Assembly (NCBI RefSeq): GCF_030013205.1
Contig: NZ_CP122648.1
Source of the DNA: Escherichia coli
Lineage (GTDB): Bacteria; Pseudomonadota; Gammaproteobacteria; Enterobacterales; Enterobacteriaceae
Reading direction: 5' to 3' (one strand)
DNA: 64,000 nt
Positions within the stretch are counted from its first letter, which is position 1. Each line of letters begins with the position of its first letter. Below are positions 8,661 through 22,047 of the stretch, piece after piece. The notes beneath the pieces are model-generated. The model saw nothing but the letters and a program-made list of their open reading frames with translations, was not told the DNA's origin and did not search any database. Position numbers and translations under genes: made by a program.

Positions 8661-9188
8661 CTAAAAATAAGATGTGATACCCAGGGTGACGATGTCGCTC
8701 ATACGTCTTAGTTTCAGCTTGTACATAATGTTGAATTTCTGAATCTTTAATGTTTGTTGCGAAATATTGAGCGTCGACGTGATATTGCTTTCATTTTTAT
8801 TTTTCAGAATCAGTTGCATAATTTTGAACTGATTATGTGAAAAACATAATTGTGAATTCTTATGGGGCAAGTGTTTACCATAAGTAATCTCAAGAAGATT
8901 TTTGATACTTTCTTTGCGGCTGACAAAATAAATAGGCGCTTTAGCTTTTAGTTTACTGATGTGATAAGGTGCCAAAACAATAATTCTCTCGGCATCTAAT
9001 TTCTCCAGAAATTTAATCGCTTCTTCATCAAGGATATGATTGTGATAGGTATCAATGATAACCTTGAAGGGTTTATTGCCTACTTTTTTGATCTCTGACA
9101 GGGAATTGATTTTTATCATTTCGTGATTATCTTTCAACTGCCAAAAGCCCTGTAAAAGAAAAGAATCTTTCGTCATGAGAAAAATCAT
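8661..9188 (-). CDS. gadE: LuxR-family acid-resistance activator GadE
   Basis: The ORF track gives 201 aa; starting at the internal Met (MIFLMTKDSFLLQG) gives the 175 aa GadE. Confidence 0.88.
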   Translation of the reverse strand: MIFLMTKDSFLLQGFWQLKDNHEMIKINSLSEIKKVGNKPFKVIIDTYHNHILDEEAIKFLEKLDAERIIVLAPYHISKLKAKAPIYFVSRKESIKNLLEITYGKHLPHKNSQLCFSHNQFKIMQLILKNKNESNITSTLNISQQTLKIQKFNIMYKLKLRRMSDIVTLGITSYF

Positions 9189-9986
9189 AACTTGCTCCTT
9201 AGCCGTTATCGTTTCGAACATGTCATCCTTTTCATTATTTACATCCTTGTCCGAATCGTTGTTCAATATAGTAAACGCCTATAAGAACTTTGCCCTTCGT
9301 GAACTAATACGTCTATTAACACTAATCAATGCTTCAGATTTATCCATCACACACTCCATATATTGATCCTAAGTAAAATTCCTGGTTGTTATCAGTTTGC
9401 AAACGGCAAACAAAAACTTAACGTTTACGGATTACTGCCCAAGAATAAGTTATCAATAACCAGTTTGTGATCTCTGAAGAATATTACTAAAGTTAAAATG
9501 TAATCCGATTTAAATATCGAGTCTCCTTGTTTCGACTTAAGCTGGCAATTGGATTGCCAGCTTTCTTTTAACGCATTGAAATTACCTGAGTAAATAACTC
9601 ATTCATGTCTTCAGGTTTTTATATAGCGTCTGGAGACACGGATATTTATGCAATGTAATCAACGCCAGTTGCAAAAAAATGAACCCGGATTACTTATTTA
9701 ACCGCCCATAGCATCAACGCTTACGGAACTCTTTGTTCACTTTCCCACAGCACTTTTAAAACATTAAACCTGACTACGGAAAATATCAGCCATGATAATG
9801 TTTGAAATGGCTAATTTGCCATGGAATGAAAAAAATTAGATGAAATTCAGTAGGTTGAAATAATCATCAGCAGGTAATTATTTCAATGATAGTGCGCAAT
9901 TGATCTACAACGCTGTGTAGCGGAGAGAGTATTAATCGGATCATAGTCACATCAAGTGACTATGATCCGGGTGACAACAGGAATAA

Positions 9987-10559
9987 TTATTGCTGCTTAA
10001 CGAACAAACTGGCGAAGCTGAACAGGCTGGCGGCGCTAAATATCAGTTCAATACCCACCAGTGTGGAAACCAAAGTTACAGACACCATCGGCGTTGCACC
10101 AAGGAATATCCATGCAATGACGATATCCAGCACACCAATAACGAGCTGTAGCCAGCTGCCTTTCATTGAACGCTGACGATACCAACTCATCAGGCGAATA
10201 ACCCCTGCAACACAGAACAAACCGGCAATAAATGCCGCAATGGCAAAAATGCCCAGCTCCGGTGCGCGGATGAAGAAATAGCCGATCAATAAATAGGCGA
10301 CTGCGACGAGGAAACCGGATAATACCGGCCAGAAATTATGACTGCGGTTGCTGAATAATCCAACAATAAGCGCAACGCCCGAGCAGATTAATAATGCACC
10401 CACTACCGTGCTTAAAATATCGCCAGAGACGAACGGGAAACTGATACACAGCAACCCGACGATAAACAGCAACACGGCAATAAACTGGATTGCTCTGCGA
10501 TGCTTTTTCAGCATCTCCAGATCAAACTTCAAAATTGTTGCCTTATCTATATATAACAT
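9987..10559 (-). CDS. hdeD: acid-resistance membrane protein HdeD
   Basis: 190 aa multi-pass membrane ORF; divergent from hdeAB. Confidence 0.9.
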   Translation of the reverse strand: MLYIDKATILKFDLEMLKKHRRAIQFIAVLLFIVGLLCISFPFVSGDILSTVVGALLICSGVALIVGLFSNRSHNFWPVLSGFLVAVAYLLIGYFFIRAPELGIFAIAAFIAGLFCVAGVIRLMSWYRQRSMKGSWLQLVIGVLDIVIAWIFLGATPMVSVTLVSTLVGIELIFSAASLFSFASLFVKQQ

Positions 10560-10813
10560 AGAACCACCCTATAAAATTAAGAAGAAAATCCCCTGCTATC
10601 AATCTATGCCAAAAACGCGTCTAAGAATGCAGTCGATTTAATAAAAATTTCCTAATTACAGTATCTGATGCATCTGTAACTCATTGTATTGAAATAAAAA
10701 TATCTGATTTTGATATTTTCCATCAACATGACATATACAGAAAACCAGGTTATAACCTCAGTGTCGAAATTGATTCGTGACGGCTCTTTCACTTTATAGT
10801 TGAGGATATTACG

Positions 10814-11146
10814 ATGAAAAAAGTATTAGGCGTTATTCTTGGTGGTCTGCTTCTTCTGCCAGTTGTGAGCAATGCAGCGGATGCGCAAAAAGCAGCTGAT
10901 AACAAAAAACCGGTCAACTCCTGGACCTGTGAAGATTTCCTGGCTGTGGACGAATCCTTCCAGCCAACTGCAGTTGGTTTTGCTGAAGCGCTGAACAACA
11001 AAGATAAACCAGAAGATGCGGTTTTAGATGTTCAGGGTATTGCAACCGTAACCCCAGCTATCGTTCAGGCTTGTACTCAGGATAAACAAGCCAACTTTAA
11101 AGATAAAGTTAAAGGCGAGTGGGACAAAATTAAGAAAGATATGTAA
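10814..11146 (+). CDS. hdeA: periplasmic acid-stress chaperone HdeA
   Basis: 110 aa ORF with signal peptide, MKKVLGVILGGLLLLPVVSNAADAQKA. Confidence 0.93.
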   Translation: MKKVLGVILGGLLLLPVVSNAADAQKAADNKKPVNSWTCEDFLAVDESFQPTAVGFAEALNNKDKPEDAVLDVQGIATVTPAIVQACTQDKQANFKDKVKGEWDKIKKDM

Positions 11147-11261
11147 TTCCGGGAATGCGTTACATCGTACTTCCTTGCATATTGAACAGGCCGGAATATC
11201 TTCTTTAAAAGCAGCTATTCCTCCTGTTCATATATAATCTCTATATTGAATGGGTTACAAA

Positions 11262-11588
11262 ATGAATATTTCATCTCTCCGTAAAGCGTTTATTTTTATG
11301 GGCGCTGTAGCGGCTTTGTCACTGGTGAACGCACAATCTGCGCTGGCAGCCAATGAATCCGCTAAAGATATGACCTGCCAGGAATTTATTGATCTGAATC
11401 CAAAAGCAATGACACCGGTTGCATGGTGGATGCTGCATGAAGAGACAGTATATAAAGGTGGCGATACCGTTACTTTAAATGAAACCGATCTCACTCAAAT
11501 TCCTAAAGTGATCGAATACTGCAAGAAAAACCCGCAGAAAAATTTGTATACCTTCAAAAATCAAGCATCTAATGACTTGCCGAATTAA
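11262..11588 (+). CDS. hdeB: periplasmic acid-stress chaperone HdeB
   Basis: 108 aa from MNISSLRKAF…; signal peptide ends ALA-ANE. Confidence 0.9.
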   Translation: MNISSLRKAFIFMGAVAALSLVNAQSALAANESAKDMTCQEFIDLNPKAMTPVAWWMLHEETVYKGGDTVTLNETDLTQIPKVIEYCKKNPQKNLYTFKNQASNDLPN

Positions 11589-11651
11589 TGAGGTACAAGT
11601 AAAAAGGAGTAGCAAGTTGAGCCATCTTGCTGCTCCTTTTTGCTTTTTTAT

Positions 11652-12299
11652 ATGACAGCAGAATTTATTATACGTCTTATACTCGCAGCAATTGCCTGTG
11701 GCGCTATTGGCATGGAAAGGCAAATGCGCGGCAAAGGAGCAGGGTTACGCACACATGTATTAATTGGCATGGGAAGCGCCCTGTTTATGATTGTTTCGAA
11801 ATATGGTTTTGCTGACGTGCTGTCTTTAAATCACGTCGGACTGGACCCCAGCCGTATTGCTGCTCAGGTGGTGACGGGCGTCGGGTTTATCGGCGCAGGT
11901 AACATTCTCGTTCGTAACCAAAATATTGTAGGTCTGACGACGGCAGCGGATATCTGGGTGACCGCCGCCATTGGTATGGTTATTGGTAGCGGTATGTACG
12001 AACTGGGCATTTATGGTTCAGTGATGACCTTGCTGGTGCTGGAAGTCTTCCATCAATTAACCTTCCGCCTGATGAACAAAAATTACCATTTACAGCTGAC
12101 ATTAGTGAACGGTAATACGGTATCAATGCTCGACTGGTTTAAGCAGCAAAAAATAAAAACGGATTTAGTTTCGTTGCAGGAAAGTGAAGATCATGAAGTG
12201 GTCGCCATTGATATCCAGCTTCATGCCACAACGTCGATAGAAGATCTGTTGCGATTATTAAAAGAGATGGCAGGGGTGAAAGGCGTTTCAATTAGCTAA
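11652..12299 (+). CDS. yhiD: MgtC-family inner membrane protein YhiD
   Basis: 215 aa from MTAEFIIRLILAAIACGAIGMERQ. Confidence 0.88.
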   Translation: MTAEFIIRLILAAIACGAIGMERQMRGKGAGLRTHVLIGMGSALFMIVSKYGFADVLSLNHVGLDPSRIAAQVVTGVGFIGAGNILVRNQNIVGLTTAADIWVTAAIGMVIGSGMYELGIYGSVMTLLVLEVFHQLTFRLMNKNYHLQLTLVNGNTVSMLDWFKQQKIKTDLVSLQESEDHEVVAIDIQLHATTSIEDLLRLLKEMAGVKGVSIS

Positions 12300-12317
12300 T
12301 CTGTATAGTTATTTATT

Positions 12318-12352
12318 CACAGGAGTACCAGAGCGGTACTCCTGTTGGTTTT
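12318..12352. terminator. bidirectional rho-independent terminator between the convergent yhiD and chuV genes
   Basis: Perfect 10-bp stem caggagtacc/ggtactcctg with loop agagc, flanked by T-runs on both strands. Confidence 0.6.
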
Positions 12353-13121
12353 AATGATCGAGGACGATCAGTGGTGAATGGTTGGCAGGATCTTTAAGTA
12401 CGGTAATATCCGCGCCGTAGAGCATTGTCAGCGCCTGCTGTGTCAATACGTCCTGCGGTTTACCATTTGCGATAACCTTTCCTTTTTGCATTAATACAAT
12501 ACGGTCTGCATAACGCGCGGCAAGATTTAGATCGTGCAATACGCAGCAAACATTGAACTGCCGTTCGTGAACTAACTGGCGTAATAAACGGAACAAGTGC
12601 TGCTGATGGTGAATATCCAGCGCCGAAGTTGGTTCATCAAGAAATAACCATTTCGGTGAGGGAGTAGGTTCCCAGAGTTGCACCAGCAGGCGCGCTAATT
12701 GTACGCGCTGTTGTTCACCACCGGATAATTGCCGATAGTCGCGGTTTGCTAACGCCTGACAGTCACATAACGCCATTATTTGTGCTGTTTCATTATCCTG
12801 ATTACCAGTACGATGCGGATGCCGACCCATCTGGATAACTTCTTGTACGCTGAATGGAAACGCCATGTGGCTATTTTGACGCATCACGGCCCGGTGTTTC
12901 GCCAGTTCAGTAATCGACCATTCATTTAATGGCTTATTAAACAACCGACATTCGCCGCTATCAGGTTGAAGATAGCCGGTTAACTGGCGAAGCAGCGTAG
13001 ATTTTCCCGCACCATTAGGGCCGAGAATGGCAACAATTTCCCCACCGGGAAAAGTCAGCGAGACATTGTCAGTCAGACGCCGCCCCTGAAGGCTATAAAC
13101 CAGATTCTGGGCGCTGATCAT
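12351..13121 (-). CDS. chuV: haem ABC transporter ATP-binding protein
   Basis: Walker [13 protein letters not shown] signature LSGGEQQRV; the start at MISAQNLVY overlaps the chuU stop by 4 nt. Confidence 0.85.
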
Positions 13122-14110
13122 GTGATCCTCCGGTTGCGCAGAATCAACCACATAAAATAAGGACCGCCAAGCAGGCTGGTTAATAATCCCACGGGCATTT
13201 CTGCTGGCTGTACCAGCGTGCGGGCAAGCGTGTCTGCCATCAGCAATAAACAGGCTCCGGCGAGGGCGGAGCAAGGGATTAGCCAGCGGTGATTTGCCCC
13301 GGTAGTCATACGAATCAGATGCGGGATCACCAGGCCAATAAAGCCGATAATGCCGCTTACCGATACGGCGGCACCAACGAGCAGTGAGCTCACTAACAGT
13401 AATTGCTGGCGTTTACGCTTAACGTTCACGCCGAGGTAGTGGGCTTCTTCATCACCGAGCTGCAGTAAATTCAGCGTTCCGGCGAGACAAGTTGTTGCGA
13501 TAATGGCCGGTAGGATGAATGAACTGGCAACCAATAACGTCGGCCATTGCGCCTTTCCAAGATTGCCCATCATCCACAATGTGAGTTGTCGTAGCTGCTG
13601 CTCATCGCCGATATAGCTCAGGATGCCGATCGCTGCGCCGCACAGGGCATTGATGGCGATACCGGCGAGTAATAATTGCATCATGCTGCCATCGCGATGG
13701 CGCTGCGTGATGAGAAAAATGATGGTGCAGACCACTAAACTTCCGGCAATGGCAAACACCATTTGCTCATAGAGCACCAGCACCACTGGGAAGGAGAAGG
13801 GCAGCACAATAGCAACGCCAACCATTAATGCAGAACCGCTACTGACGCCGAGTAATCCAGGGTCAGCCATTGGGTTGCGAAAAAGCCCCTGCATAATTAC
13901 CCCGGCGGTTGCCAACGCTGCACCTACCAGCACCGCCAGCAAAACCCGTGGTAGACGAATATTGAGCCAGATATCGCGGTATTCCTCATCAAAAAGGGCA
14001 TCAAAACTGATCTTTAACGCTCCCTGACTGGCACCGAACAGCACCAGGGCAAGCAATAATAGTGATAGCCCCATAAAGACCCTGGCGGATGAAAATGAAT
14101 CCTTGAGCAC
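13118..14110 (-). CDS. chuU: haem ABC transporter permease (FecCD family)
   Basis: 330 aa polytopic permease of BtuC/FecCD type. Confidence 0.85.
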
Positions 14111-14160
14111 GCAAAACTCCGTTATGACGTTGCGGCGCGGAGAGTCTGCGCCGCATGGGA

Positions 14161-14784
14161 TTACGCCGGTTTCAGGTCAGGTTCAATCAGACTGTAGATC
14201 TGCTTGTTGAGTGCTGGCGCGTTTGCCAGTTCATGAATGTGTGCAGCGACATCGGCACGGTGAACAAAACCATGACACTCCTGATTTTGTATCCGTTGTG
14301 CTTTGCCCGTTGCCGCCCCATCAAGCAGACCGCCAGGGCGGAGAATGGCGTAATCAAGCTGGCTGGTTTGCAACCAGCTTTCCGCCAGCGTTTTTTCCCG
14401 TACCGCCTGACCAAACGCAGCCTTTGCCCGCTCCGATAAAAACGGCCAGCTATCGCCGCATCCCAAAGAGGTCACCAGAATCATGCGACTGATGCCGGCC
14501 TTTTCGGCCTCATCAATCACTGTTCTGTGCGCCAGATAATCCTGAGCTCCTCCCATTGTTGAGATGATAAGCGCATCCGGGCCAGCTGCGCGGCAAGCAG
14601 CCGCAACTACGCTGGCATCACAGGCGTCGCCTGTAAAAACCTGTACGCCTTGTTGCGCCAGTTTCGTGGCGGCATCGGCATGACGAACGACAGCAACGAC
14701 CGGACGTTGTTCCGCCAGCGCCAGTTCAAGCGTTCTGGCACCCACACCTTTTCCGCCTGCGCCAAAGAGTAGCCACGGCGTCAT
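14161..14784 (-). CDS. chuY: ChuY, NAD(P)-binding reductase-like protein of the haem-utilisation operon
   Basis: 207 aa ORF with a Rossmann-like N-terminus; start overlaps the chuX stop. Confidence 0.75.
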   Translation of the reverse strand: MTPWLLFGAGGKGVGARTLELALAEQRPVVAVVRHADAATKLAQQGVQVFTGDACDASVVAAACRAAGPDALIISTMGGAQDYLAHRTVIDEAEKAGISRMILVTSLGCGDSWPFLSERAKAAFGQAVREKTLAESWLQTSQLDYAILRPGGLLDGAATGKAQRIQNQECHGFVHRADVAAHIHELANAPALNKQIYSLIEPDLKPA

Positions 14785-15278
14785 CAGGCGTGTTCCTTTA
14801 ACGATGCCGCCAGAGCATGGAAAGCGTTGACCTGTTCGCTCAGGAGCTGACGATGGTCATCCCTGCCGAGGAAGATTTTCAGCATGGCGCTGCCTTCCTT
14901 ATTGAAAAAGAGAATAGAGGCGGTGTCCATGCCCATAAATTTACGTTCGATCAAGGCAATATGCGTGCAGTTTTCTGCTTTGATATGCCCGGACATGCCG
15001 TGCTTTCCGCGTAGGTTGAAATAGCCGTGGCGGTGGAAACCCGAAGGCAGTTCGCCGCTAAATTCGAGGATTACATCGGCAGTATGTACTAACGTGGTGA
15101 CGTTGCCCCATTCGCAGACGGTATCCCAGACAGTATCGAATTTATCGCCTGACACTATGGTAGAGGAGGGCAGATTTTTCACTACTTCCAGCAGTGTGGT
15201 GTTGTATTGTTCGGCTACCACCTCCAGCGTACCGTCCGGCTCCGTTTTCAAAAATTCTTGTAACGAGACATGGCTCAT
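14784..15278 (-). CDS. chuX: ChuX haem-binding/utilisation protein
   Basis: 164 aa ORF, MSHVSLQEFLKTEPDGTLEVVAEQYN; position in the chu operon. Confidence 0.8.
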   Translation of the reverse strand: MSHVSLQEFLKTEPDGTLEVVAEQYNTTLLEVVKNLPSSTIVSGDKFDTVWDTVCEWGNVTTLVHTADVILEFSGELPSGFHRHGYFNLRGKHGMSGHIKAENCTHIALIERKFMGMDTASILFFNKEGSAMLKIFLGRDDHRQLLSEQVNAFHALAASLKEHA

Positions 15279-15290
15279 AAATCACTCCTG

Positions 15291-16628
15291 TTATGGTTTT
15301 TCACGCACAATCGCTGGCGCATTAAGTACCTGAATTAGTTCATTAAGAGACTGCAAAATATTGCTTGCCCAGAAACGACCTTCATTAGTCAGCCGCAGGC
15401 AAGTTGAAGCATCGCGACTTAAGCCTTTTTGGTGCCATTGAGCCAGTAACGGCGCGAGTTTTTCGGCATGTGGCGTAAGTTCATCCAGCGGTACACGCGC
15501 TGTTTCAACACCTGACTGCAAGGTATGACGCCATTGCGCATCACGTTCGGCGTTACGCATGATCATCATCAGCGGTTTTTTGCCTGCCGCGACGGATTCA
15601 TGCCAGGTCTGAAGATTGCGTTCGTTCATCCAGGAGTAACCATTAATCGAACCGCCGGCTCCGGAACCAAAGGCCAGACAATCGGCACCTTGTTTAATCA
15701 GCAGGTTATAGAGATTGCGTTCGCGTGTGGTACGGCCCCAGTGGCTGTTACTGATGCAGCGCCAACCGGCTTCGTCCATGAAGTCACACCCTTGCAGATA
15801 AAGATCGCGACGTTCTGCCGGAGAGGGCACGGTAGTACGCCCATTTTCCACGGCTTTGCCCAGCGGTGTATTGGGCAGGACATTGAGCGCATAGAGATCG
15901 ACGCCGTCGAGACCGATATCGCGAGCAATAGCCAGATCTTCTCCCCAGGTTTGCGCATCCTGACCCGGCAGGCCAAACAGCAGGTCACAGACCACCGCTG
16001 CACGGTCGCGTTTGACCAGGCTTTCCATAAACGCAATGGCGGTTGGGCCATCCGAGGTGCGGGCCATTTTCTTGCGGATTTTGCTGTTAAACGACTGAAT
16101 ACCAATTGAGAAGCGGTTTGCTCCTGCATCAAGGCAAGCATCGATTCGCTCAGCGTCAAAATTCAGTACCCGGCCTTCGATAGTGATTTCACAATCAGGG
16201 GTCAGTGGCAGCTTTTCTCGTAATGTATTGATAATTCTGGCTAAATCGTGTGCAGAAAGCGCGGAAGGCGTGCCGCCACCGAAATAGACCGCGTGGATGG
16301 GGGCAGACTGATGCAATACGCTGTCCGCTTCCATTTCTATTTCACGAATCAGGGCGTCGGTATAATGAGCACACGCATCTTCATTAAAACGGTTCTGATA
16401 AAAACCACAAAACGTGCAGTGTGTCGCACAAAAAGGAATGTGTAGATAAACCAGTCGCTTACGTGGTGATACCGTTTGATTGATCATCTCTTGCCAGGTC
16501 TGTGCCAGTTGCTCTTTGGCAACCGGAATGGCTCCACGAAACGGCATCATGGCGCGCCTGTCTTTAAATGGCTGATCACCGTCTAAAGCAAAATGTGGCG
16601 TGAGATCCAGGGTGTTATTTGCGTTCAT
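15291..16628 (-). CDS. chuW: ChuW, radical-SAM HemN-like anaerobic haem-degrading enzyme
   Basis: 445 aa ORF with CxxxCxxC radical-SAM motif (CATHCTFCGF). Confidence 0.85.
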   Translation of the reverse strand: MNANNTLDLTPHFALDGDQPFKDRRAMMPFRGAIPVAKEQLAQTWQEMINQTVSPRKRLVYLHIPFCATHCTFCGFYQNRFNEDACAHYTDALIREIEMEADSVLHQSAPIHAVYFGGGTPSALSAHDLARIINTLREKLPLTPDCEITIEGRVLNFDAERIDACLDAGANRFSIGIQSFNSKIRKKMARTSDGPTAIAFMESLVKRDRAAVVCDLLFGLPGQDAQTWGEDLAIARDIGLDGVDLYALNVLPNTPLGKAVENGRTTVPSPAERRDLYLQGCDFMDEAGWRCISNSHWGRTTRERNLYNLLIKQGADCLAFGSGAGGSINGYSWMNERNLQTWHESVAAGKKPLMMIMRNAERDAQWRHTLQSGVETARVPLDELTPHAEKLAPLLAQWHQKGLSRDASTCLRLTNEGRFWASNILQSLNELIQVLNAPAIVREKP

Positions 16629-16647
16629 TCGTCTGATTTAAATCCAT

Positions 16648-17562
16648 TTATTGCGGCCAAAGCTGCTGGTGTAAAGACTCAACGACATCAGCAATACGCG
16701 GACCCATTCCCAGAATCAGGTTTTGATCAACGGTGATAATGCGCTGGTTTTTCCATGCGGCAGTGTGGGTAATTCCGGCAATAGAACGTAGCCGATTAAT
16801 ATCGCCATCGACCATTTGTGAGGTTACGACAATCACTTCTGGATTGGCCGCAATCAGTGATTCTGCACTGTAGCTTTTGTACTGCTGGTGGGTTGCGACG
16901 TTTTCTGCTCCGGCAAGCGAAAGAATGGCGTCCGCGACGCTGCCTTTACCGGCAACTTGTGGCGCACTTCCGCCTGCGGAGAGAATAAACATGGCTTTAA
17001 CCGGGGCTTTTTTGGCCGCCACGTTTTGCTGTACTCGCTCCAGGCGTTGGTTGATCTGTGTCACCAGCGCCTCGCCTTGTTCAGGAACCTGTAGCGTTTT
17101 TGCCAGTTGGCGAATGTTGGCGTACATCTGCTCAAGGGTGGCAGGCACACGCGGCAGGGTAACGACGTTGACTTTCTGCGCCCGTAGTTGGTCGAGCACA
17201 ATTTGCGGTCCAGCATCCTGCCAGGTAATTACGCTATCCGGGCGAAGTGACAAAATGCCTTCGCTGCTGAGTTGTTTCCAGTAGCCAATATGCGGCAGTT
17301 TGGCGGTTTCTGGTGGATAAGATGTCGTTTCATCGACACCAACCACGCGTTCGCCAGCGCCCATCGCGTAGATTAGCTCCGTCAGCGATCCTCCTGCGAC
17401 CACGATACGTTCGGCAGCCGTTACGCTAAAAGCCCAGCTAAGAGCCAGTACTGCCGTAAACAATTTTTTTCGTTTTACCGCGGTCTTCGCGGCAGAGGCC
17501 ACGGCTGAAATACATAACGTTAGTGGGGAAAAAAGAAACGGCCTGGTGATGATCCTTGGCAT
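16648..17562 (-). CDS. chuT: periplasmic haem-binding protein ChuT (start codon uncertain; the ORF track extends to 17640)
   Basis: Class III periplasmic binding-protein fold; the Met at 17562 gives 304 aa and places a Fur-box-like site just upstream. Confidence 0.75.
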   Translation of the reverse strand: MPRIITRPFLFSPLTLCISAVASAAKTAVKRKKLFTAVLALSWAFSVTAAERIVVAGGSLTELIYAMGAGERVVGVDETTSYPPETAKLPHIGYWKQLSSEGILSLRPDSVITWQDAGPQIVLDQLRAQKVNVVTLPRVPATLEQMYANIRQLAKTLQVPEQGEALVTQINQRLERVQQNVAAKKAPVKAMFILSAGGSAPQVAGKGSVADAILSLAGAENVATHQQYKSYSAESLIAANPEVIVVTSQMVDGDINRLRSIAGITHTAAWKNQRIITVDQNLILGMGPRIADVVESLHQQLWPQ

Positions 17563-17585
17563 AATATGAGAACTCTTATCAAATT

Positions 17586-17604
17586 GAGAATGATCATGAT
17601 TATC
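17586..17604. promoter_or_regulatory. Fur-box-like site upstream of chuT
   Basis: gagaatgatcatgattatc matches the 19-bp Fur consensus GATAATGATAATCATTATC at 16 of 19 positions. Confidence 0.5.
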
Positions 17605-17936
17605 ATTTGGGTTATATATGAAATACAACCGTCGATTCAATACGTAAGGCGTTACAAGCGTATTTATTTTTGATTTTTATCAAGATGCTTCGTCAGCTAA
17701 CGTTCTTGTTACCGACTAAATTTCAGCGCGGGAAAAAGCTGAGAACCCAGAGATATCAAGGCTTGCAGAGCAAAGCGAAGAGAAAATTATCACTGTTAAC
17801 GACAAAGTTTAGTGATGAGGTCATGGGGGAATAACCATAAAAACAAAGTGGTTTCCAGGGCGCAGGATAAGTTTCATAACCCCCTGTTTATTGTGTTAAT
17901 GGCGGTTAAAAAAAGCTTGATCATAAAAAATTGATC

Positions 17937-17955
17937 GATAATAATTCTCATTATC
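17937..17955. promoter_or_regulatory. Fur-box-like site in the chuA promoter region, about 290 nt upstream of the chuA start
   Basis: gataataattctcattatc matches the Fur consensus at 16 of 19 positions. Confidence 0.5.
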
Positions 17956-18244
17956 ACGTTTGCGCTTAACAAAACACGACCATATGGATAACAAAACCAT
18001 AGCATTTGCAAGGGATAACGCACAGCGCTCTTCACTCCTGATGGGGCATATCGTTTTGCCTGACAAAGAGGGCGTGCTTTTGCGTATTTGCCGAGATACC
18101 AGGCAATTTCATGGGATATAAACGCCTGTAAACTCACCCGGCGAATATTATCGCTCTGAATTTTAAATAAATTTATTTTTCGCCAGCCACCCCGGTATTA
18201 ACCCAGGCAGCCAGCATTTTTTATTTTCCTCATGGAGAATCGCT

Positions 18245-20227
18245 ATGTCACGTCCGCAATTTACCTCGTTGCGTTTGAGTTTGTTGGCTTTGGCTGTTTC
18301 TGCCACCTTGCCAACGTTTGCTTTTGCTACTGAAACCATGACCGTTACGGCAACGGGGAATGCCCGTAGTTCCTTCGAAGCGCCTATGATGGTCAGCGTC
18401 ATCGACACTTCCGCTCCTGAAAATCAAACGGCTACTTCAGCCACCGATCTGCTGCGTCATGTTCCTGGAATTACTCTTGATGGTACCGGACGAACCAACG
18501 GTCAGGATGTAAATATGCGTGGCTATGATCATCGCGGCGTGCTGGTTCTTGTCGATGGTGTTCGCCAGGGAACGGATACCGGACACCTGAATGGTACTTT
18601 TCTTGATCCGGCGCTGATCAAGCGTGTTGAGATTGTTCGCGGACCTTCAGCATTACTGTATGGCAGTGGCGCGCTGGGTGGAGTGATCTCCTACGATACG
18701 GTCGATGCAAAAGATTTATTGCAGGAAGGACAAAGTAGTGGTTTTCGTGTCTTTGGTACTGGCGGCACGGGGGACCATAGCCTGGGATTAGGCGCGAGCG
18801 CGTTTGGGCGAACTGAAAATCTGGATGGTATTGTGGCCTGGTCCAGTCGCGATCGGGGTGATTTACGCCAGAGCAATGGTGAAACCGCGCCGAATGACGA
18901 GTCCATTAATAACATGCTGGCGAAAGGGACCTGGCAAATTGATTCAGCCCAGTCTCTGAGCGGTTTAGTGCGTTACTACAACAACGACGCGCGTGAACCA
19001 AAAAATCCGCAGACCGTTGAAGCTTCTGATAGCAGCAACCCGATGGTTGATCGTTCTACAATTCAACGCGATGCGCAGCTTTCTTATAAACTCGCCCCGC
19101 AGGGCAACGACTGGTTAAATGCAGATGCAAAAATTTACTGGTCGGAAGTCCGTATTAATGCGCAAAACACGGGGAGTTCCGGCGAGTATCGTGAACAGAT
19201 AACAAAAGGAGCAAGGCTGGAGAACCGTTCCACTCTATTTGCCGACAGTTTCGCTTCTCACTTACTGACATATGGCGGTGAGTATTATCGTCAGGAACAA
19301 CATCCGGGCGGCGCGACGACGGGCTTCCCGCAAGCAAAAATCGATTTTAGCTCTGGCTGGCTACAGGATGAGATCACCTTACGCGATCTGCCGATTACCC
19401 TGCTTGGCGGAACCCGCTATGACAGTTATCGCGGTAGCAGCGACGGCTACAAAGATGTTGATGCTGACAAATGGTCATCTCGTGCGGGGATGACTATCAA
19501 CCCGACCAACTGGCTGATGTTATTTGGCTCATATGCCCAGGCATTCCGCGCCCCGACGATGGGCGAAATGTATAACGATTCTAAGCACTTCTCGATTGGT
19601 CGCTTCTATACCAACTATTGGGTGCCAAACCCGAACTTACGTCCGGAAACTAACGAAACTCAGGAGTACGGTTTTGGGCTGCGTTTTGATGACCTGATGT
19701 TGTCCAATGATGCCCTGGAATTTAAAGCCAGCTACTTTGATACCAAAGCGAAGGATTACATCTCCACGACCGTCGATTTCGCGGCGGCGACGACTATGTC
19801 GTATAACGTCCCGAACGCCAAAATCTGGGGCTGGGATGTGATGACGAAATATACCACTGATCTGTTTAGCCTTGATGTGGCCTATAACCGAACCCGCGGC
19901 AAAGACACCGATACCGGCGAATATATCTCCAGTATTAACCCGGATACCGTTACCAGTACCCTGAATATTCCGATCGCTCATAGTGGCTTCTCTGTTGGTT
20001 GGGTCGGTACGTTTGCCGATCGCTCAACACATATCAGCAGCAGCTACAGCAAACAACCTGGCTATGGCGTGAATGATTTCTACGTCAGTTATCAAGGACA
20101 ACAGGCGCTCAAAGGCATGACCACTACTTTGGTGTTGGGTAACGCTTTCGACAAAGAGTACTGGTCGCCACAAGGCATCCCACAGGATGGTCGTAATGGA
20201 AAAATTTTCGTGAGTTATCAATGGTAA
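18245..20227 (+). CDS. chuA: TonB-dependent outer-membrane haem/haemoglobin receptor
   Basis: 660 aa ORF with signal peptide, TonB box (ETMTVTA) and C-terminal terminal Phe/Trp beta-barrel signature (…FVSYQW). Confidence 0.92.
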   Translation: MSRPQFTSLRLSLLALAVSATLPTFAFATETMTVTATGNARSSFEAPMMVSVIDTSAPENQTATSATDLLRHVPGITLDGTGRTNGQDVNMRGYDHRGVLVLVDGVRQGTDTGHLNGTFLDPALIKRVEIVRGPSALLYGSGALGGVISYDTVDAKDLLQEGQSSGFRVFGTGGTGDHSLGLGASAFGRTENLDGIVAWSSRDRGDLRQSNGETAPNDESINNMLAKGTWQIDSAQSLSGLVRYYNNDAREPKNPQTVEASDSSNPMVDRSTIQRDAQLSYKLAPQGNDWLNADAKIYWSEVRINAQNTGSSGEYREQITKGARLENRSTLFADSFASHLLTYGGEYYRQEQHPGGATTGFPQAKIDFSSGWLQDEITLRDLPITLLGGTRYDSYRGSSDGYKDVDADKWSSRAGMTINPTNWLMLFGSYAQAFRAPTMGEMYNDSKHFSIGRFYTNYWVPNPNLRPETNETQEYGFGLRFDDLMLSNDALEFKASYFDTKAKDYISTTVDFAAATTMSYNVPNAKIWGWDVMTKYTTDLFSLDVAYNRTRGKDTDTGEYISSINPDTVTSTLNIPIAHSGFSVGWVGTFADRSTHISSSYSKQPGYGVNDFYVSYQGQQALKGMTTTLVLGNAFDKEYWSPQGIPQDGRNGKIFVSYQW

Positions 20228-20275
20228 TCATCTGCCCCGATATTTCGGGGCATTTATCTGGAAGGAAGAGAGACA

Positions 20276-21304
20276 ATGAACCACTACACACGCTGGCTTG
20301 AGTTAAAAGAACAAAATCCCGGAAAGTACGCGCGTGACATCGCAGGTTTAATGAATATTAGCGAAGCAGAACTGGCATTTGCGCGCGTCACGCACGATGC
20401 GTGGCGGATGTGCGGCGATATCCGTGACATTCTGGCGGCGCTCGAAAGTGTTGGCGAGACCAAATGTATTTGTCGTAATGAATATGCAGTCCATGAGCAA
20501 GTTGGTGCGTTCACAAACCAGCATTTGAACGGACATGCCGGATTGATCCTCAATCCGCGCGCGCTGGATTTGCGTCTGTTTCTCAATCAATGGGCCAGTG
20601 TTTTTCACATTAAAGAAAATACGACTCGTGGCGAACGCCAGAGTATTCAGTTCTTTGATCATCAGGGCGATGCATTACTAAAAGTTTATGCCACCGACAA
20701 TACCGATATGGCGGCATGGAGTGAGCTTCTGGCACGGTTTATCACCGATGAGAATACGTCGCTTGAGTTAAAAGCCGTTGATGCGCCAGTTGTTCAAACG
20801 CGAGCCGATGCCAGTGTGGTCGAGCAAGAGTGGCGGGCGATGACCGACGTTCATCAGTTTTTTACGTTGCTCAAGCGCCACAACCTGACGCGCCAACAGG
20901 CGTTCAATCTGGTGGCAGATGATTTGGCCTGCAAAGTATCCAACAGTGCGTTGGCGCAAATTCTTGAATCTGCACAGCAGGATGGCAATGAAATCATGGT
21001 GTTTGTTGGCAACCGTGGCTGCGTACAGATTTTCACCGGTGTGGTAGAAAAAGTGGTGCCAATGAAAGGTTGGCTGAATATTTTTAACCCGACGTTTACT
21101 CTTCATCTATTAGAAGAGAGCATTGCTGAAACCTGGGTAACCCGTAAACCTGCTAGTGACGGTTATGTGACCAGTCTGGAATTGTTTGCCCATGATGGTA
21201 CGCAGATAGCGCAACTTTATGGTCAACGTACAGAAGGCGAACAGGAGCAAGCGCAATGGCGTAAGCAAATTGCTTCGCTGATACCGGAAGGCGTTACTGC
21301 ATAA
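20276..21304 (+). CDS. chuS: haem oxygenase / haemin-degrading protein ChuS
   Basis: 342 aa ORF of HemS/ChuS type, immediately after chuA. Confidence 0.9.
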   Translation: MNHYTRWLELKEQNPGKYARDIAGLMNISEAELAFARVTHDAWRMCGDIRDILAALESVGETKCICRNEYAVHEQVGAFTNQHLNGHAGLILNPRALDLRLFLNQWASVFHIKENTTRGERQSIQFFDHQGDALLKVYATDNTDMAAWSELLARFITDENTSLELKAVDAPVVQTRADASVVEQEWRAMTDVHQFFTLLKRHNLTRQQAFNLVADDLACKVSNSALAQILESAQQDGNEIMVFVGNRGCVQIFTGVVEKVVPMKGWLNIFNPTFTLHLLEESIAETWVTRKPASDGYVTSLELFAHDGTQIAQLYGQRTEGEQEQAQWRKQIASLIPEGVTA

Positions 21305-21364
21305 CGTATAATTAACGGGAGGTCTGGCTATTTATTGCTGGGCCTCTTTATATTAATCAATCGA

Positions 21365-21895
21365 TCACACCAGATAATCAATATGCTGATGGCGTACCAA
21401 CTCATTGATCCGCTTAAGATTGAGGATCATCATGATATTGTGTTTATGGCAGTAGAACGTTTTTAGCGATATTTTCAGTTTCTCCAGAATATCTTCCGTT
21501 GTCATTTGATTCGCAATGCAGCTCAGAACCTGATGCTGCTTGCGCGAAAGGGACACATCCGCTTCAGGCACAGAGCAGTAACTGCCATTGATGAGTGCGA
21601 CAAAGTCGATGATGGTGATAGTTCGCGGAACAAAGGTCACCGGTACTTTCCCCAGGCAGCGTTTAATATTAAAGGGAGAGAAAATAATCACATGGACAGG
21701 TTTTAATCGTTCAATTTGAGTGAGCAAATTAGAATGAAATACATTATTCATTAATGTATCAATAATGACGAAGGCATGCTGATGCAACATTACGTCGATC
21801 TCTTCTTCGTTCTGTATATGAACGACATTACCTTTACTCAGAATGTTTTTCATCGCAGTGAAGAACATCGTATCCCTGGTAATTATAAGAAACAT
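21365..21895 (-). CDS. dctR: LuxR-family regulator DctR (YhiF)
   Basis: 176 aa ORF with a C-terminal LuxR HTH; downstream of slp. Confidence 0.85.
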   Translation of the reverse strand: MFLIITRDTMFFTAMKNILSKGNVVHIQNEEEIDVMLHQHAFVIIDTLMNNVFHSNLLTQIERLKPVHVIIFSPFNIKRCLGKVPVTFVPRTITIIDFVALINGSYCSVPEADVSLSRKQHQVLSCIANQMTTEDILEKLKISLKTFYCHKHNIMMILNLKRINELVRHQHIDYLV

Positions 21896-22047
21896 AACCG
21901 ACTCCTGGTGCGGACATTAACTTTATAATCAGTTTGCCAAAGGTAATTAACAGGACAGGGCTTATAATAATAGTTAGCTGGCTGTGTATTAATTTGATGT
22001 AATGCATGATGCAGATGCTGAGAAAGCATCTGCATCTCTCGGTGGTG

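Follow-up and report, generated by a model that had tools for sequence, protein, structure and literature searches.

A divergent, Fur- and temperature-gated control region between chuT and chuA in the Escherichia coli haem-uptake locus

Introduction

The FourU thermometer of Salmonella agsA, reportedly described by Waldminghaus in 2007, is the prototype of a class in which a short hairpin keeps the SD paired to four consecutive U residues and melts near 37 °C or above. Thermometer function has been shown by mutagenesis for shuA and chuA (Kouse 2013, PMC3660397), and also by the mutation U273A (PMC9002310); translation of chuA rises with temperature, and this response changes when single substitutions make the stem more or less stable (PMC3660397). 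In EHEC, the chuA 5′UTR was mapped to 291 nt by dRNA-seq, and CyaR, RyhB, Esr41, Hfq and Rho act on this leader, with a CyaR site "about 15 nt upstream of the SD" (PMC9002310). Repression of chuA by Fur goes back to Torres and Payne 1997, as cited by the same study. On the other side of the locus, 5′RACE of Shigella dysenteriae shuT placed +1 at 42 nt upstream of the ATG, and the UU at +15/+16 of this leader was mutated; a Fur site with three mismatches was assigned to +1 to +19, on which reporters, truncation and EMSA agree (Wei 2017, PMC5458455).

Two further systems bear on this locus. The Yersinia-type hemPRSTUV operons carry a small first gene, hemP, ahead of the haem receptor gene (Stojiljkovic and Hantke 1992; PMC6158557). 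HmuP-responsive elements (HPREs) are found in haem-receptor 5′UTRs of α- and β-proteobacteria (Amarelle 2019, as cited in PMC9131926 and PMC9241770), and PMC9241770 gives them as absent from γ-proteobacteria.

Here, we analyze the corresponding region in a 64-kb stretch of an E. coli chromosome (the window). Our data concern its sequence features and their significance, how exactly these line up with the published maps, their conservation and the match to Rfam, while Fur binding, start sites, thermoregulation and the effects of small RNAs and Rho are taken from the literature. An earlier note, made from the raw sequence, had proposed a divergent control region here; this proposal is correct, but every element of it is already in print.

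Results

Overview of the locus

The region belongs to the E. coli chu (Shigella shu) haem-uptake locus and is organized as follows:

16648–17562, minus strand: chuT (shuT) coding sequence, periplasmic haem-binding protein, ATG at 17562
17563–18244: chuT/chuA intergenic region
18245–20227, plus strand: chuA coding sequence, TonB-dependent haem receptor, ATG at 18245
20276–21304: chuS, downstream of chuA

Both intergenic boundaries are given by the ORF list and by the PGAP annotation of NZ_CP062203, an identical record, and the intergenic region is 100% identical to porcine ETEC chromosomes. chuT is the first gene of chuT-chuW-chuX-chuY-chuU-(hmuV) on the minus strand. Across 10 Escherichia lineages, three portions of the intergenic region are near-invariant, namely the chuT leader with its Fur box, the chuA promoter with its Fur box, and positions 18165–18247; the spacer and the interior of the chuA leader are variable. 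With high confidence, we regard the region as the divergent, Fur- and temperature-gated control region of the chu/shu locus, and no result of the analysis speaks against this.

Two Fur boxes at the transcription starts

The whole 64 kb was scanned with the 19-bp Fur consensus GATAATGATAATCATTATC, allowing at most three mismatches. The first two sites below were the only matches, where 0.02 are expected from shuffles of the whole window:

17586–17604: chuT Fur box GAGAATGATCATGATTATC, 16/19 on either strand, 24–42 nt upstream of the chuT ATG
17937–17955: chuA Fur box GATAATAATTCTCATTATC, 16/19 on the plus and 17/19 on the minus strand, 290–308 nt upstream of the chuA ATG
17592–17610: weaker Fur site overlapping the chuT box

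The earlier note had described two 19-bp Fur-like sites, each with 16 of 19 matches, one just upstream of the chuT start and one about 290 nt upstream of chuA. Both exist, with coordinates one base off and a better score for the chuA site on the minus strand, and the distance to chuA holds. The chuT site does precede the ATG, but it lies within DNA that encodes the 5′UTR rather than upstream of the promoter. Set against the start sites in the literature, the chuT box corresponds to +1 to +19 of the chuT transcript (17604 to 17586), and the chuA box spans both the −10 element AATAAT and +1 at 17954.

In intergenic DNA with a GC content of only 39%, such sites could in principle be chance matches within AT-rich sequence. 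However, among 2000 dinucleotide shuffles of the intergenic region, a fraction of 0.0005 (0.05%) contained at least one Fur site, and none contained two. Moreover, both sites are located on mapped transcription starts and are invariant or nearly so across Escherichia, and EMSA has been published for the shuT site (PMC5458455). We give coincidence next to no chance.

The chuT promoter and leader

17563–17604, minus strand: 42-nt chuT 5′UTR, a published hsp17-like RNA thermometer, a single hairpin with UUCUC paired with the SD AAGAG
17611–17640, minus strand: probable chuT sigma-70 promoter, −35 TTGAAT (17640–17635), 18-nt spacer, −10 TATAAC (17616–17611)

The UU mutated at +15/+16 in S. dysenteriae is also present in the chuT leader of the window, for which the hairpin has a predicted free energy of −9.0 kcal/mol at 25 °C and −5.8 kcal/mol at 37 °C. 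That this leader is a published RNA thermometer in its own right was overlooked in the earlier note. The promoter, read off the sequence relative to the published +1, is probable; it was not among the matches of the consensus promoter scan. A minus-strand match of that scan at 17590–17561 lies inside the chuT leader and is considered spurious.

The chuA promoter and 291-nt leader

17917–17945, plus strand: chuA promoter from the promoter scan, −35 TTGATC (17917–17922), 17-nt spacer, −10 AATAAT (17940–17945), overlapping the Fur box at 17937–17955
17954–18244, plus strand: chuA 5′UTR of 291 nt, from EHEC dRNA-seq (PMC9002310) and alignment of the O157:H7 leader
18130–18170, plus strand (+177 to +217): inhibitory segment needed for Rho termination, from truncations T3/T4 and bicyclomycin (PMC9002310)

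The long chuA leader postulated from the sequence is borne out by the EHEC dRNA-seq data (PMC9002310). Since alignment of the O157:H7 leader with the window needs no indels, +1 falls at 17954, inside the Fur box. This register is confirmed by the published mutation U273A, which falls on U18226, one of the four U residues of the thermometer. Since position 17954 is a T, the true start may be 1–2 nt away; the coordinates of the Rho segment are given with +1 at 17954. The inputs of CyaR, RyhB, Esr41, Hfq and Rho on this leader had been left out of the earlier note. An ops element GGCGGTAGnnTG, searched for because of a reported RfaH effect, has no match with up to two mismatches in 17302–21448, and the terminator-like matches that were recorded are weak and no commoner than in shuffles.

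The FourU thermometer

18216–18247, plus strand: FourU RNA thermometer, Rfam RF02597, hairpin A18223–U18240 with loop UCAU
18217–18230, plus strand: U-rich tract ttttttattttcct
18234–18237, plus strand: chuA SD GGAG, within GGAGAA (18234–18239)

The U-rich tract next to the SD, in which a FourU-type thermosensor had been suspected, is indeed a member of the Rfam family RF02597 (shuA/chuA 5′ UTR thermoregulator, shuA_thermo). The match scores 60.1 bits against a gathering score of 58 (E = 3e-8), covers model positions 1–32 of 32 and is identical to the consensus at all 32. Other Rfam matches in 16500–19500 (hammerhead HH9, ceN63 and a viral pseudoknot) are far below their gathering scores.

The folding of the leader at 25 °C versus 37 °C, suggested earlier as a check, was carried out. 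In the full leader, U18224–U18227 are predicted to pair with the SD GGAGAA in a 7-bp stem with a probability of 0.95–0.99, and the energy of the hairpin changes from −8.4 kcal/mol at 25 °C to −6.1 kcal/mol at 37 °C. By nearest-neighbour folding of the full leader, the SD is predicted to become only slightly more accessible from the lower to the higher temperature (0.01 to 0.02). The claim of thermosensing therefore rests on the published mutagenesis (PMC3660397) and not on the folds.

A different pairing, in which the SD is hidden mainly by the distal U-run (18217–18222) together with AGCA (18213–18216) and not by the proximal FourU stem, is the minimum free energy structure of a 35-nt fragment at 25 °C (−9.4 versus −8.4 kcal/mol) and corresponds to the SD-occluding hairpin kept in other genera (AGCGCTTTTC...GGAGAGTTGCT). 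In the full leader, however, the proximal hairpin has a probability of ∼0.99 and the distal one of ∼0.01, and the published mutations at U-19 and C-17, stabilising and destabilising, affect the proximal stem, a part that forms the loop in the distal hairpin (PMC3660397). The distal pairing as the main lock is thus improbable.

A short ORF in the chuA leader

17984–18121, plus strand: 45-codon ORF in the chuA leader, ATG start, ends at +168; not conserved

This ORF lies wholly within the leader and ends just before the +177 to +217 segment, a position from which translation of a functional 45-residue peptide could control the access of Rho and, with it, chuA expression. Nevertheless, no SD precedes it, no Pfam family matches it, and 1- and 2-nt indels occur in this region of the Escherichia alignment. 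Its start codon is missing in two Escherichia lineages, and its C-terminal half is frameshifted or truncated in B2-type loci, E69 loci and E. albertii, giving 53, 40 and 34 residues with unrelated tails. On account of the start codon loss and the frameshifts we reject a functional upstream ORF, which is extremely unlikely. The ORF was also considered as a HemP protein on a by-eye likeness (SSLLMG...EGVLLR), for which Pfam, HMM and shuffle tests gave no support.

The chuA leader as a possible remnant of hemP

17984–18170, plus strand: hemP slot of other genera, AAATAA kept at the hemP stop position (18165–18170)

The core of the HemP family is located at its C-terminus (...H.GQ.Y.LR.T..GKLILTK, Pfam hemP). 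The chuA leader slot and both of its flanks are collinear with 74 hemP-hemR loci of other enterobacterial genera, and only the flanks are recognisably homologous. Counted from the receptor ATG, the intact hemP of these loci starts at −255 to −265 and ends at −73 to −104; in the window, ATGGATAAC is found at −261 and AAATAA at −80 to −75. Positions 17905–17962 are collinear with the hemP promoter (E = 7e-6) and 18164–18247 with the 3′ end of hemP and the following spacer (E = 1e-16). A profile of the Escherichia leader aligns end to end with the Citrobacter koseri sequence (E = 6e-25), and the Rho segment (18130–18170) ends exactly at the hemP stop position.

These relationships would be accounted for if the 291-nt leader were a fossil of hemP, which is the small gene at the head of hemPRSTUV. 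In that case, the Fur promoter would once have driven hemP and the last ∼80 nt would have separated hemP from hemR, while what is left of the gene, no longer translated, would act as the Rho-loading inhibitory segment. Such an origin complements the main mechanism without conflict. On the other hand, the interior of the leader has no significant similarity to hemP. No HemP is found in the six frames of the leader by a protein HMM trained on 69 enterobacterial HemP sequences, and there is no match to Pfam or to a DNA HMM of the hemP core. A profile of the interior only gives E = 0.01–0.4; the global alignment reaches z = 1.9, a result equalled by 8 of 150 shuffles. Alternatively, unrelated DNA of similar length may have taken the place of the interior. 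The collinear slot speaks for descent from hemP but does not make the leader a member of the HemP family, and we consider the odds of a hemP origin to be evenly balanced.

When 5,426 complete genomes were searched by blastn, at nucleotide sensitivity, with the hemP of C. koseri, no hemP was matched elsewhere in E. coli. Somewhat short of an even chance, in our view, is the fuller scenario in which Escherichia lost HemP and kept the Fur promoter, the stop-codon neighbourhood and the HPRE-like motif (see below), the remnant becoming the Rho segment and the motif a landing site for CyaR. That scenario would account for the 291-nt leader, with its many post-transcriptional inputs, in front of a receptor gene acquired horizontally. 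If the leader is a hemP fossil, it would be a clean case of a dead gene recycled as a regulatory 5′UTR.

An HPRE-like motif at the predicted CyaR site

18182–18215, plus strand: HPRE-like bipartite motif GCCAGCC-N19-CAGCCAGC, its 3′ half overlapping the predicted CyaR site

The motif is unique in the window (0.00 expected) and is found once per locus in 69 of 88 loci, and most of its columns are at least 95% conserved among 73 unique sequences. Consensus folding yields stacked 2-bp GC stems with CA/CA loops between them; no covariation was seen in this fold, in which every pair but one is invariant. The CyaR pairing site is predicted at ∼18206–18221 by a duplex search limited to 18170–18250. 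An unrestricted duplex of CyaR with the whole leader spanned 140 nt and was discarded as meaningless. The motif, a by-product of the sequence comparison, is a candidate HPRE. Should the leader prove to descend from hemP, the role of the conserved GCCAGCC/CAGCCAGC in γ-proteobacteria would become a question again.

A candidate FNR box upstream of chuT

17670–17683: perfect FNR consensus TTGATTTTTATCAA (TTGAT-N4-ATCAA), centred at −72.5 from the chuT +1; candidate site

In promoters regulated by FNR or CRP, class I sites are centred near −61.5, −71.5 or −82.5 and class II sites at −41.5. The box is the only exact FNR match in the window (0.14 expected), and its centre, counted from the published aerobic chuT +1, is 1 bp away from the class I position at −71.5. 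A class II layout would lack a good −10 element, as read from the intergenic sequence. The box is invariant in six other Escherichia loci by pattern search and in a 10-sequence Escherichia intergenic alignment, where E. albertii keeps it though the neighbouring sequence has diverged; all examined Escherichia lineages that carry chuT have it. In APEC, an fnr mutant showed lowered chuA-lacZ expression, and EMSA was done on a "chuA promoter" fragment (PMC5481319). The FNR site named in that work (TTGTAATGTTTCAA) is found in the chuT/chuA intergenic region of neither the window nor B2-type loci.

The box, a by-product of our analysis, is a candidate regulatory site of chuT. If the box is functional, an oxygen switch would be complete: FnrS already represses the O2-dependent ChuS, and FNR would induce the operon that contains the anaerobic haem-degrading ChuW.

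Discussion

The sequence features and the published maps together indicate how the region very probably works. Two sigma-70 promoters would fire back to back from starts 350 bp apart, at 17604 on the minus strand for chuT and 17954 on the plus strand for chuA. A Fur operator across each start would keep both operons off when iron is plentiful. Both mRNAs would carry a temperature-sensitive hairpin that hides the RBS at ∼25 °C and opens at 37 °C; this part is played by the only hairpin of the 42-nt leader in chuT and by the FourU hairpin at the 3′ end of the 291-nt leader in chuA. The chuA leader probably adds further layers, with Rho-dependent premature termination that needs +177 to +217 and activation by CyaR just 5′ of the hairpin, as well as repression by RyhB and Esr41 at the RBS and binding of Hfq. 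Fur would tie haem uptake to low iron, and the two RNA thermometers would tie it to host temperature. A multi-layered control region of this kind was recoverable from raw sequence by the earlier note.

Among known systems, the HPREs resemble the chuA motif in having a GCCAGCC/CAGCCAGC-type direct repeat ∼26–30 nt before the receptor start codon (compare CCCGCAAGCCAGCCGACAGCCAGCCAGCG of C. violaceum). Their halves are adjacent, whereas those in the chuA leader are ∼19 nt apart, and Escherichia is without HemP/HmuP; the likeness is drawn from the cited descriptions.

Yersinia-type hemPRSTUV shares with chuA a homologous Fur-controlled promoter, homologous last ∼80 nt before the receptor gene and a U-rich hairpin that occludes the SD. 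It differs in its intact hemP and in hemSTUV on the same strand, whereas in Escherichia the hemP ORF is absent and chuTWXYUV runs divergently. The hairpins of most other-genus loci are also more stable (−8 to −11 kcal/mol at 37 °C, compared to −6.1 kcal/mol in chuA), and Y. enterocolitica HemR1 has been reported without thermoregulation. With Salmonella agsA, chuA has in common four consecutive U residues on the SD in a short hairpin; agsA is a small heat-shock protein gene with other flanking structure and no sequence homology to chuA.

With S. dysenteriae shuT (Wei et al. 2017, PMC5458455), the window's chuT shares the 42-nt leader, the 3-mismatch Fur box at +1 to +19, the UU at +15/+16 and the AAGAG SD within a single hairpin; that work was done in S. 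dysenteriae, and the identity of the two is read from these landmarks. The EHEC chuA 5′UTR map (Sy and Tree 2022, PMC9002310) has the same 291-nt leader, without indels between O157:H7 and the window, and its CyaR site, its +177 to +217 inhibitory segment and its +271 termination site can all be placed on the window. The leader interior differs from O157:H7 by a few substitutions, and the small RNA and Rho effects are those of the EHEC allele. Finally, the shuA/chuA thermometer (Kouse et al. 2013, PMC3660397) agrees with the window in all 32 positions, occupies the same spot directly 5′ of the chuA ATG behind a leader of ∼290 nt, and was mutated at the same U (−19, U18226). No difference from it was found: the window contains the sequence of the family itself, in a further E. 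coli strain.

Locus organization

The open reading frames flanking the region in the window are:

16648–17562, minus strand, chuT
18245–20227, plus strand, chuA
20276–21304, plus strand, chuS, downstream of chuA

From these coordinates, the interval singled out in the earlier note (17563–18247) spans the 682 bp between chuT and chuA together with the chuA ATG. The segment 17400–18400 is 100% identical to several porcine E. coli chromosomes and was matched in 2,236 of 5,426 complete E. coli genomes, chromosomally every time. In the annotation of an identical record, the flanking genes are called shuT/chuT and chuA. The minus-strand cluster begins with chuT and includes hutW/chuW, hutX, chuY, shuU and an ATPase, while chuA and then chuS lie on the plus strand, with yhiD/hdeB on one side of the locus and dctR/slp on the other. 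The chu locus (~9000–22000, viewed through L001, one of the compared haem-receptor loci) is an insertion in the acid-fitness island, flanked by yhiD/hdeB/hdeA/hdeD/gadE on one side and dctR/slp on the other.

RefSeq locus tags jump by one or two numbers from chuT to chuA in L002, L003, L005 and L006 (e.g. RS01515 to RS01525), which suggests that earlier intergenic gene calls were later withdrawn. In strain WP4-S17-ESBL-03 (NZ_AP022044.1), IS26 lies in the chuA leader directly after the start site (equivalent to ~17975); chuA and chuS are deleted, and a truncated rlmJ follows, then gorA.

Fur sites and transcription starts

The two Fur-like sites of 19 bp proposed earlier are present, at 17586–17604 and 17937–17955 (2 mismatches on the minus strand). 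They are the only matches to the consensus GATAATGATAATCATTATC with at most three mismatches in the whole 64 kb (expected 0.02). Because the intergenic region is AT-rich (39% GC), the test was repeated with 2000 dinucleotide shuffles of this region alone, where at least one site arose in 0.05% and two sites in none. A weaker site (17592–17610) overlaps the first.

According to 5′RACE, shuT transcription in Shigella dysenteriae starts 42 nt ahead of the ATG, with a 19-nt Fur site (three mismatches) at +1 to +19; reporters, truncation by 5 nt and EMSA established direct Fur repression through this site (Wei et al. 2017, PMC5458455). Counting 42 nt back from the chuT ATG of the window leads to 17604, and the Fur box (17604–17586) coincides exactly with +1 to +19. 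The site placed just upstream of the chuT start codon therefore sits in the transcribed leader. Judged from the sequence upstream of +1, the chuT promoter is likely TTGAAT-18-TATAAC (17640–17611, minus strand).

The chuA start in EHEC was mapped by dRNA-seq and gives a 291-nt 5′UTR (Sy and Tree 2022, PMC9002310). Since the O157:H7 leader aligns with the window without indels, chuA +1 is 17954, within the Fur box, in agreement with the long leader proposed earlier; the published U273A falls on U18226, 19 nt upstream of the ATG, which confirms the register. A σ70-like promoter, TTGATC-17-AATAAT (17917–17945), overlaps this Fur box. The same study describes activation by CyaR at a site ~15 nt upstream of the SD, peaks of Hfq both at the RBS and at +160–200, and repression by RyhB and Esr41 at the RBS. 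It further reports that +177 to +217 (18130–18170) is strongly inhibitory and that Rho-dependent termination occurs at +271 (18224) (PMC9002310). No ops element (GGCGGTAGnnTG, at most 2 mismatches) was found in the leader (17954–18244), despite a reported effect of RfaH on ChuA. A partial GGCGGTTA lies at 17901–17908, upstream of the start site.

RNA thermometers

The U-tract and SD lie where the earlier note had read them, and its suggestion of a FourU-type thermosensor at the end of the chuA leader is well founded. Rfam family RF02597 (shuA/chuA 5′UTR thermoregulator) matches 18216–18247 with 60.1 bits (gathering score 58), with 32 of 32 positions equal to the family consensus. A functional FourU thermometer in shuA and chuA was demonstrated by reporter fusions with stabilizing and destabilizing mutations, including mutations at the U located 19 nt upstream of the ATG (Kouse et al. 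2013, PMC3660397). The predicted hairpin (A18223–U18240, loop UCAU) pairs U18224–27 with A and G of the SD GGAGAA, and has a probability of ~0.99 when the full 291-nt leader is folded. Warming from 25 to 37°C lowers its predicted stability from −8.4 to −6.1 kcal/mol. Predicted SD accessibility rises only from 0.01 to 0.02, so that folding alone does not demonstrate thermosensing.

An alternative SD-occluding hairpin (18213–18244), formed via the distal U-run 18217–18222, is slightly stabler than the published stem when a 35-nt fragment is folded at 25°C, but its probability in the full leader is only ~0.01. The hairpin conserved in other genera corresponds to this alternative.

Among the compared loci, RF02597 scores above threshold in Escherichia only. 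Most non-Escherichia loci (L009–L087, last 35 nt before the ATG) have predicted U-rich SD-occluding hairpins that are stabler than that of Escherichia (−8 to −11 kcal/mol at 37°C in most orthologues, versus −6.1). This agrees with the reported lack of thermoregulation of Yersinia HemR1.

A second thermometer, in the chuT leader, had been overlooked. The 42-nt shuT leader is an hsp17-like thermometer, as established by mutagenesis of U at +15/+16 and RNase T1 probing (PMC5458455). These positions are UU in the window, where the leader is predicted to fold into one hairpin in which UUCUC pairs with the SD AAGAG (−9.0 kcal/mol at 25°C, −5.8 at 37°C).

The original observation is confirmed, and its interpretation is supported by published work and Rfam. 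All of its proposals were already published and curated in Rfam, and the finding is an ordinary one. The FNR, hemP-slot and HPRE-like observations described below are leads, not results.

Conservation within Escherichia and a candidate FNR box

When ten lineages of Escherichia (D/E/F-type, O157:H7, B2-type and E. albertii) are aligned, three nearly invariant blocks stand out:

17563–17700, chuT leader, Fur box and promoter, plus ~60 nt beyond
17880–17962, chuA promoter and Fur box
18165–18247, third nearly invariant block

The spacer (17700–17880) and the leader interior (17963–18165) show ~20% differences, with 1- and 2-nt indels. Conservation of the ~60 nt past the chuT promoter (17640–17700) equals that of the Fur boxes within E. 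coli. This segment holds a small hairpin (AATACG...CGTATT) followed by a plus-strand T-rich run, directly before a perfect FNR consensus, TTGATTTTTATCAA (17670–17683).

The FNR box is the sole exact match in 64 kb (expected 0.14) and is centred 72.5 bp upstream of the published chuT/shuT +1. It is invariant in all examined chuT-carrying Escherichia lineages, including E. albertii despite diverged adjacent sequence. ChuW, encoded by the chuT operon, is an anaerobic haem-degrading enzyme, and repression of chuS by FnrS is already known; an FNR-activated chuT promoter is therefore plausible. No description of this box was found in the searchable literature. In Escherichia sp. MOD1-EC7003, no chuT was found within 2.5 kb upstream of chuA, nor was the FNR box; its chuA leader contains ~124 extra nt.

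Origin of the long chuA leader

In a scan of ChuA relatives with one genome per species (80 loci), an intact hemP, encoding a small haem-regulatory protein, lies directly upstream of the receptor gene in 74 non-Escherichia loci. These genes encode 52–84 aa with the C-terminus ...GQHYLLRQT.AGKLILTK, starting at about −255 to −265 and ending at −73 to −104 relative to the receptor ATG. Outside Escherichia, a periplasmic binding-protein gene (~32% identity to ChuT) is located downstream in the same orientation. Intact hemP in other enterobacterial genera (among loci L009–L087) takes the exact place held in Escherichia by the chuA leader interior (17984–18170).

In the window, a 45-codon ORF begins with ATGGATAAC at −261, and AAATAA at −80 to −75 occupies the hemP stop position. 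The 3′ end of hemP and the hemP–hemR spacer are 80–84% identical to 18164–18247 (E down to 1e-16). Collinear similarity (E down to 7e-6) links 17905–17962 to the promoter and Fur box of hemP, and a profile built from Escherichia leaders can be aligned over its full length with the region from C. koseri (E = 6e-25). The chuA leader occupies the hemP slot, and we consider the chances about even that it is a remnant of hemP eroded by neutral drift.

The leader interior may instead be a replacement by unrelated DNA. It contains no recognizable hemP, and all five tests failed: there was no match to Pfam, to a HemP protein HMM in six frames across the leader, or to a hemP-core DNA HMM, and comparison with hemP gave E = 0.01–0.4 for an interior-only profile and z = 1.9 for a shuffle-controlled alignment. 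Only the flanks and the ATGGATAAC start and AAATAA stop contexts are still alignable with hemP loci. The ORF is not conserved within Escherichia, which rules out a functional small gene. For descent from hemP, the inhibitory segment that published work found necessary for Rho termination stops exactly at the position of the former hemP stop codon, which fits loading of Rho on an untranslated gene remnant. Published work notes only that a hemP homologue is missing from the Shigella locus (PMC6158557).

An HPRE-like motif

A bipartite motif, GCCAGCC-N19-CAGCCAGC (18182–18215), occurs once in the window (expected 0.00); 69 of the 88 loci likewise have a single copy, located just upstream of the receptor SD. 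Over 73 unique sequences, from Escherichia to Leminorella and Limnobaculum, most motif columns reach at least 95% conservation. Escherichia keeps the motif though it lacks hemP. In consensus folding all pairs but one are invariant, so that covariation evidence is absent. Duplex prediction places the pairing site of CyaR at the 3′ half of the motif. The HmuP-responsive element (HPRE) belongs to alpha- and beta-proteobacteria, and a passage in PMC9241770, citing Amarelle 2019, describes it as absent from gammaproteobacteria. The motif resembles the HPRE in the form quoted for C. violaceum in PMC9131926.
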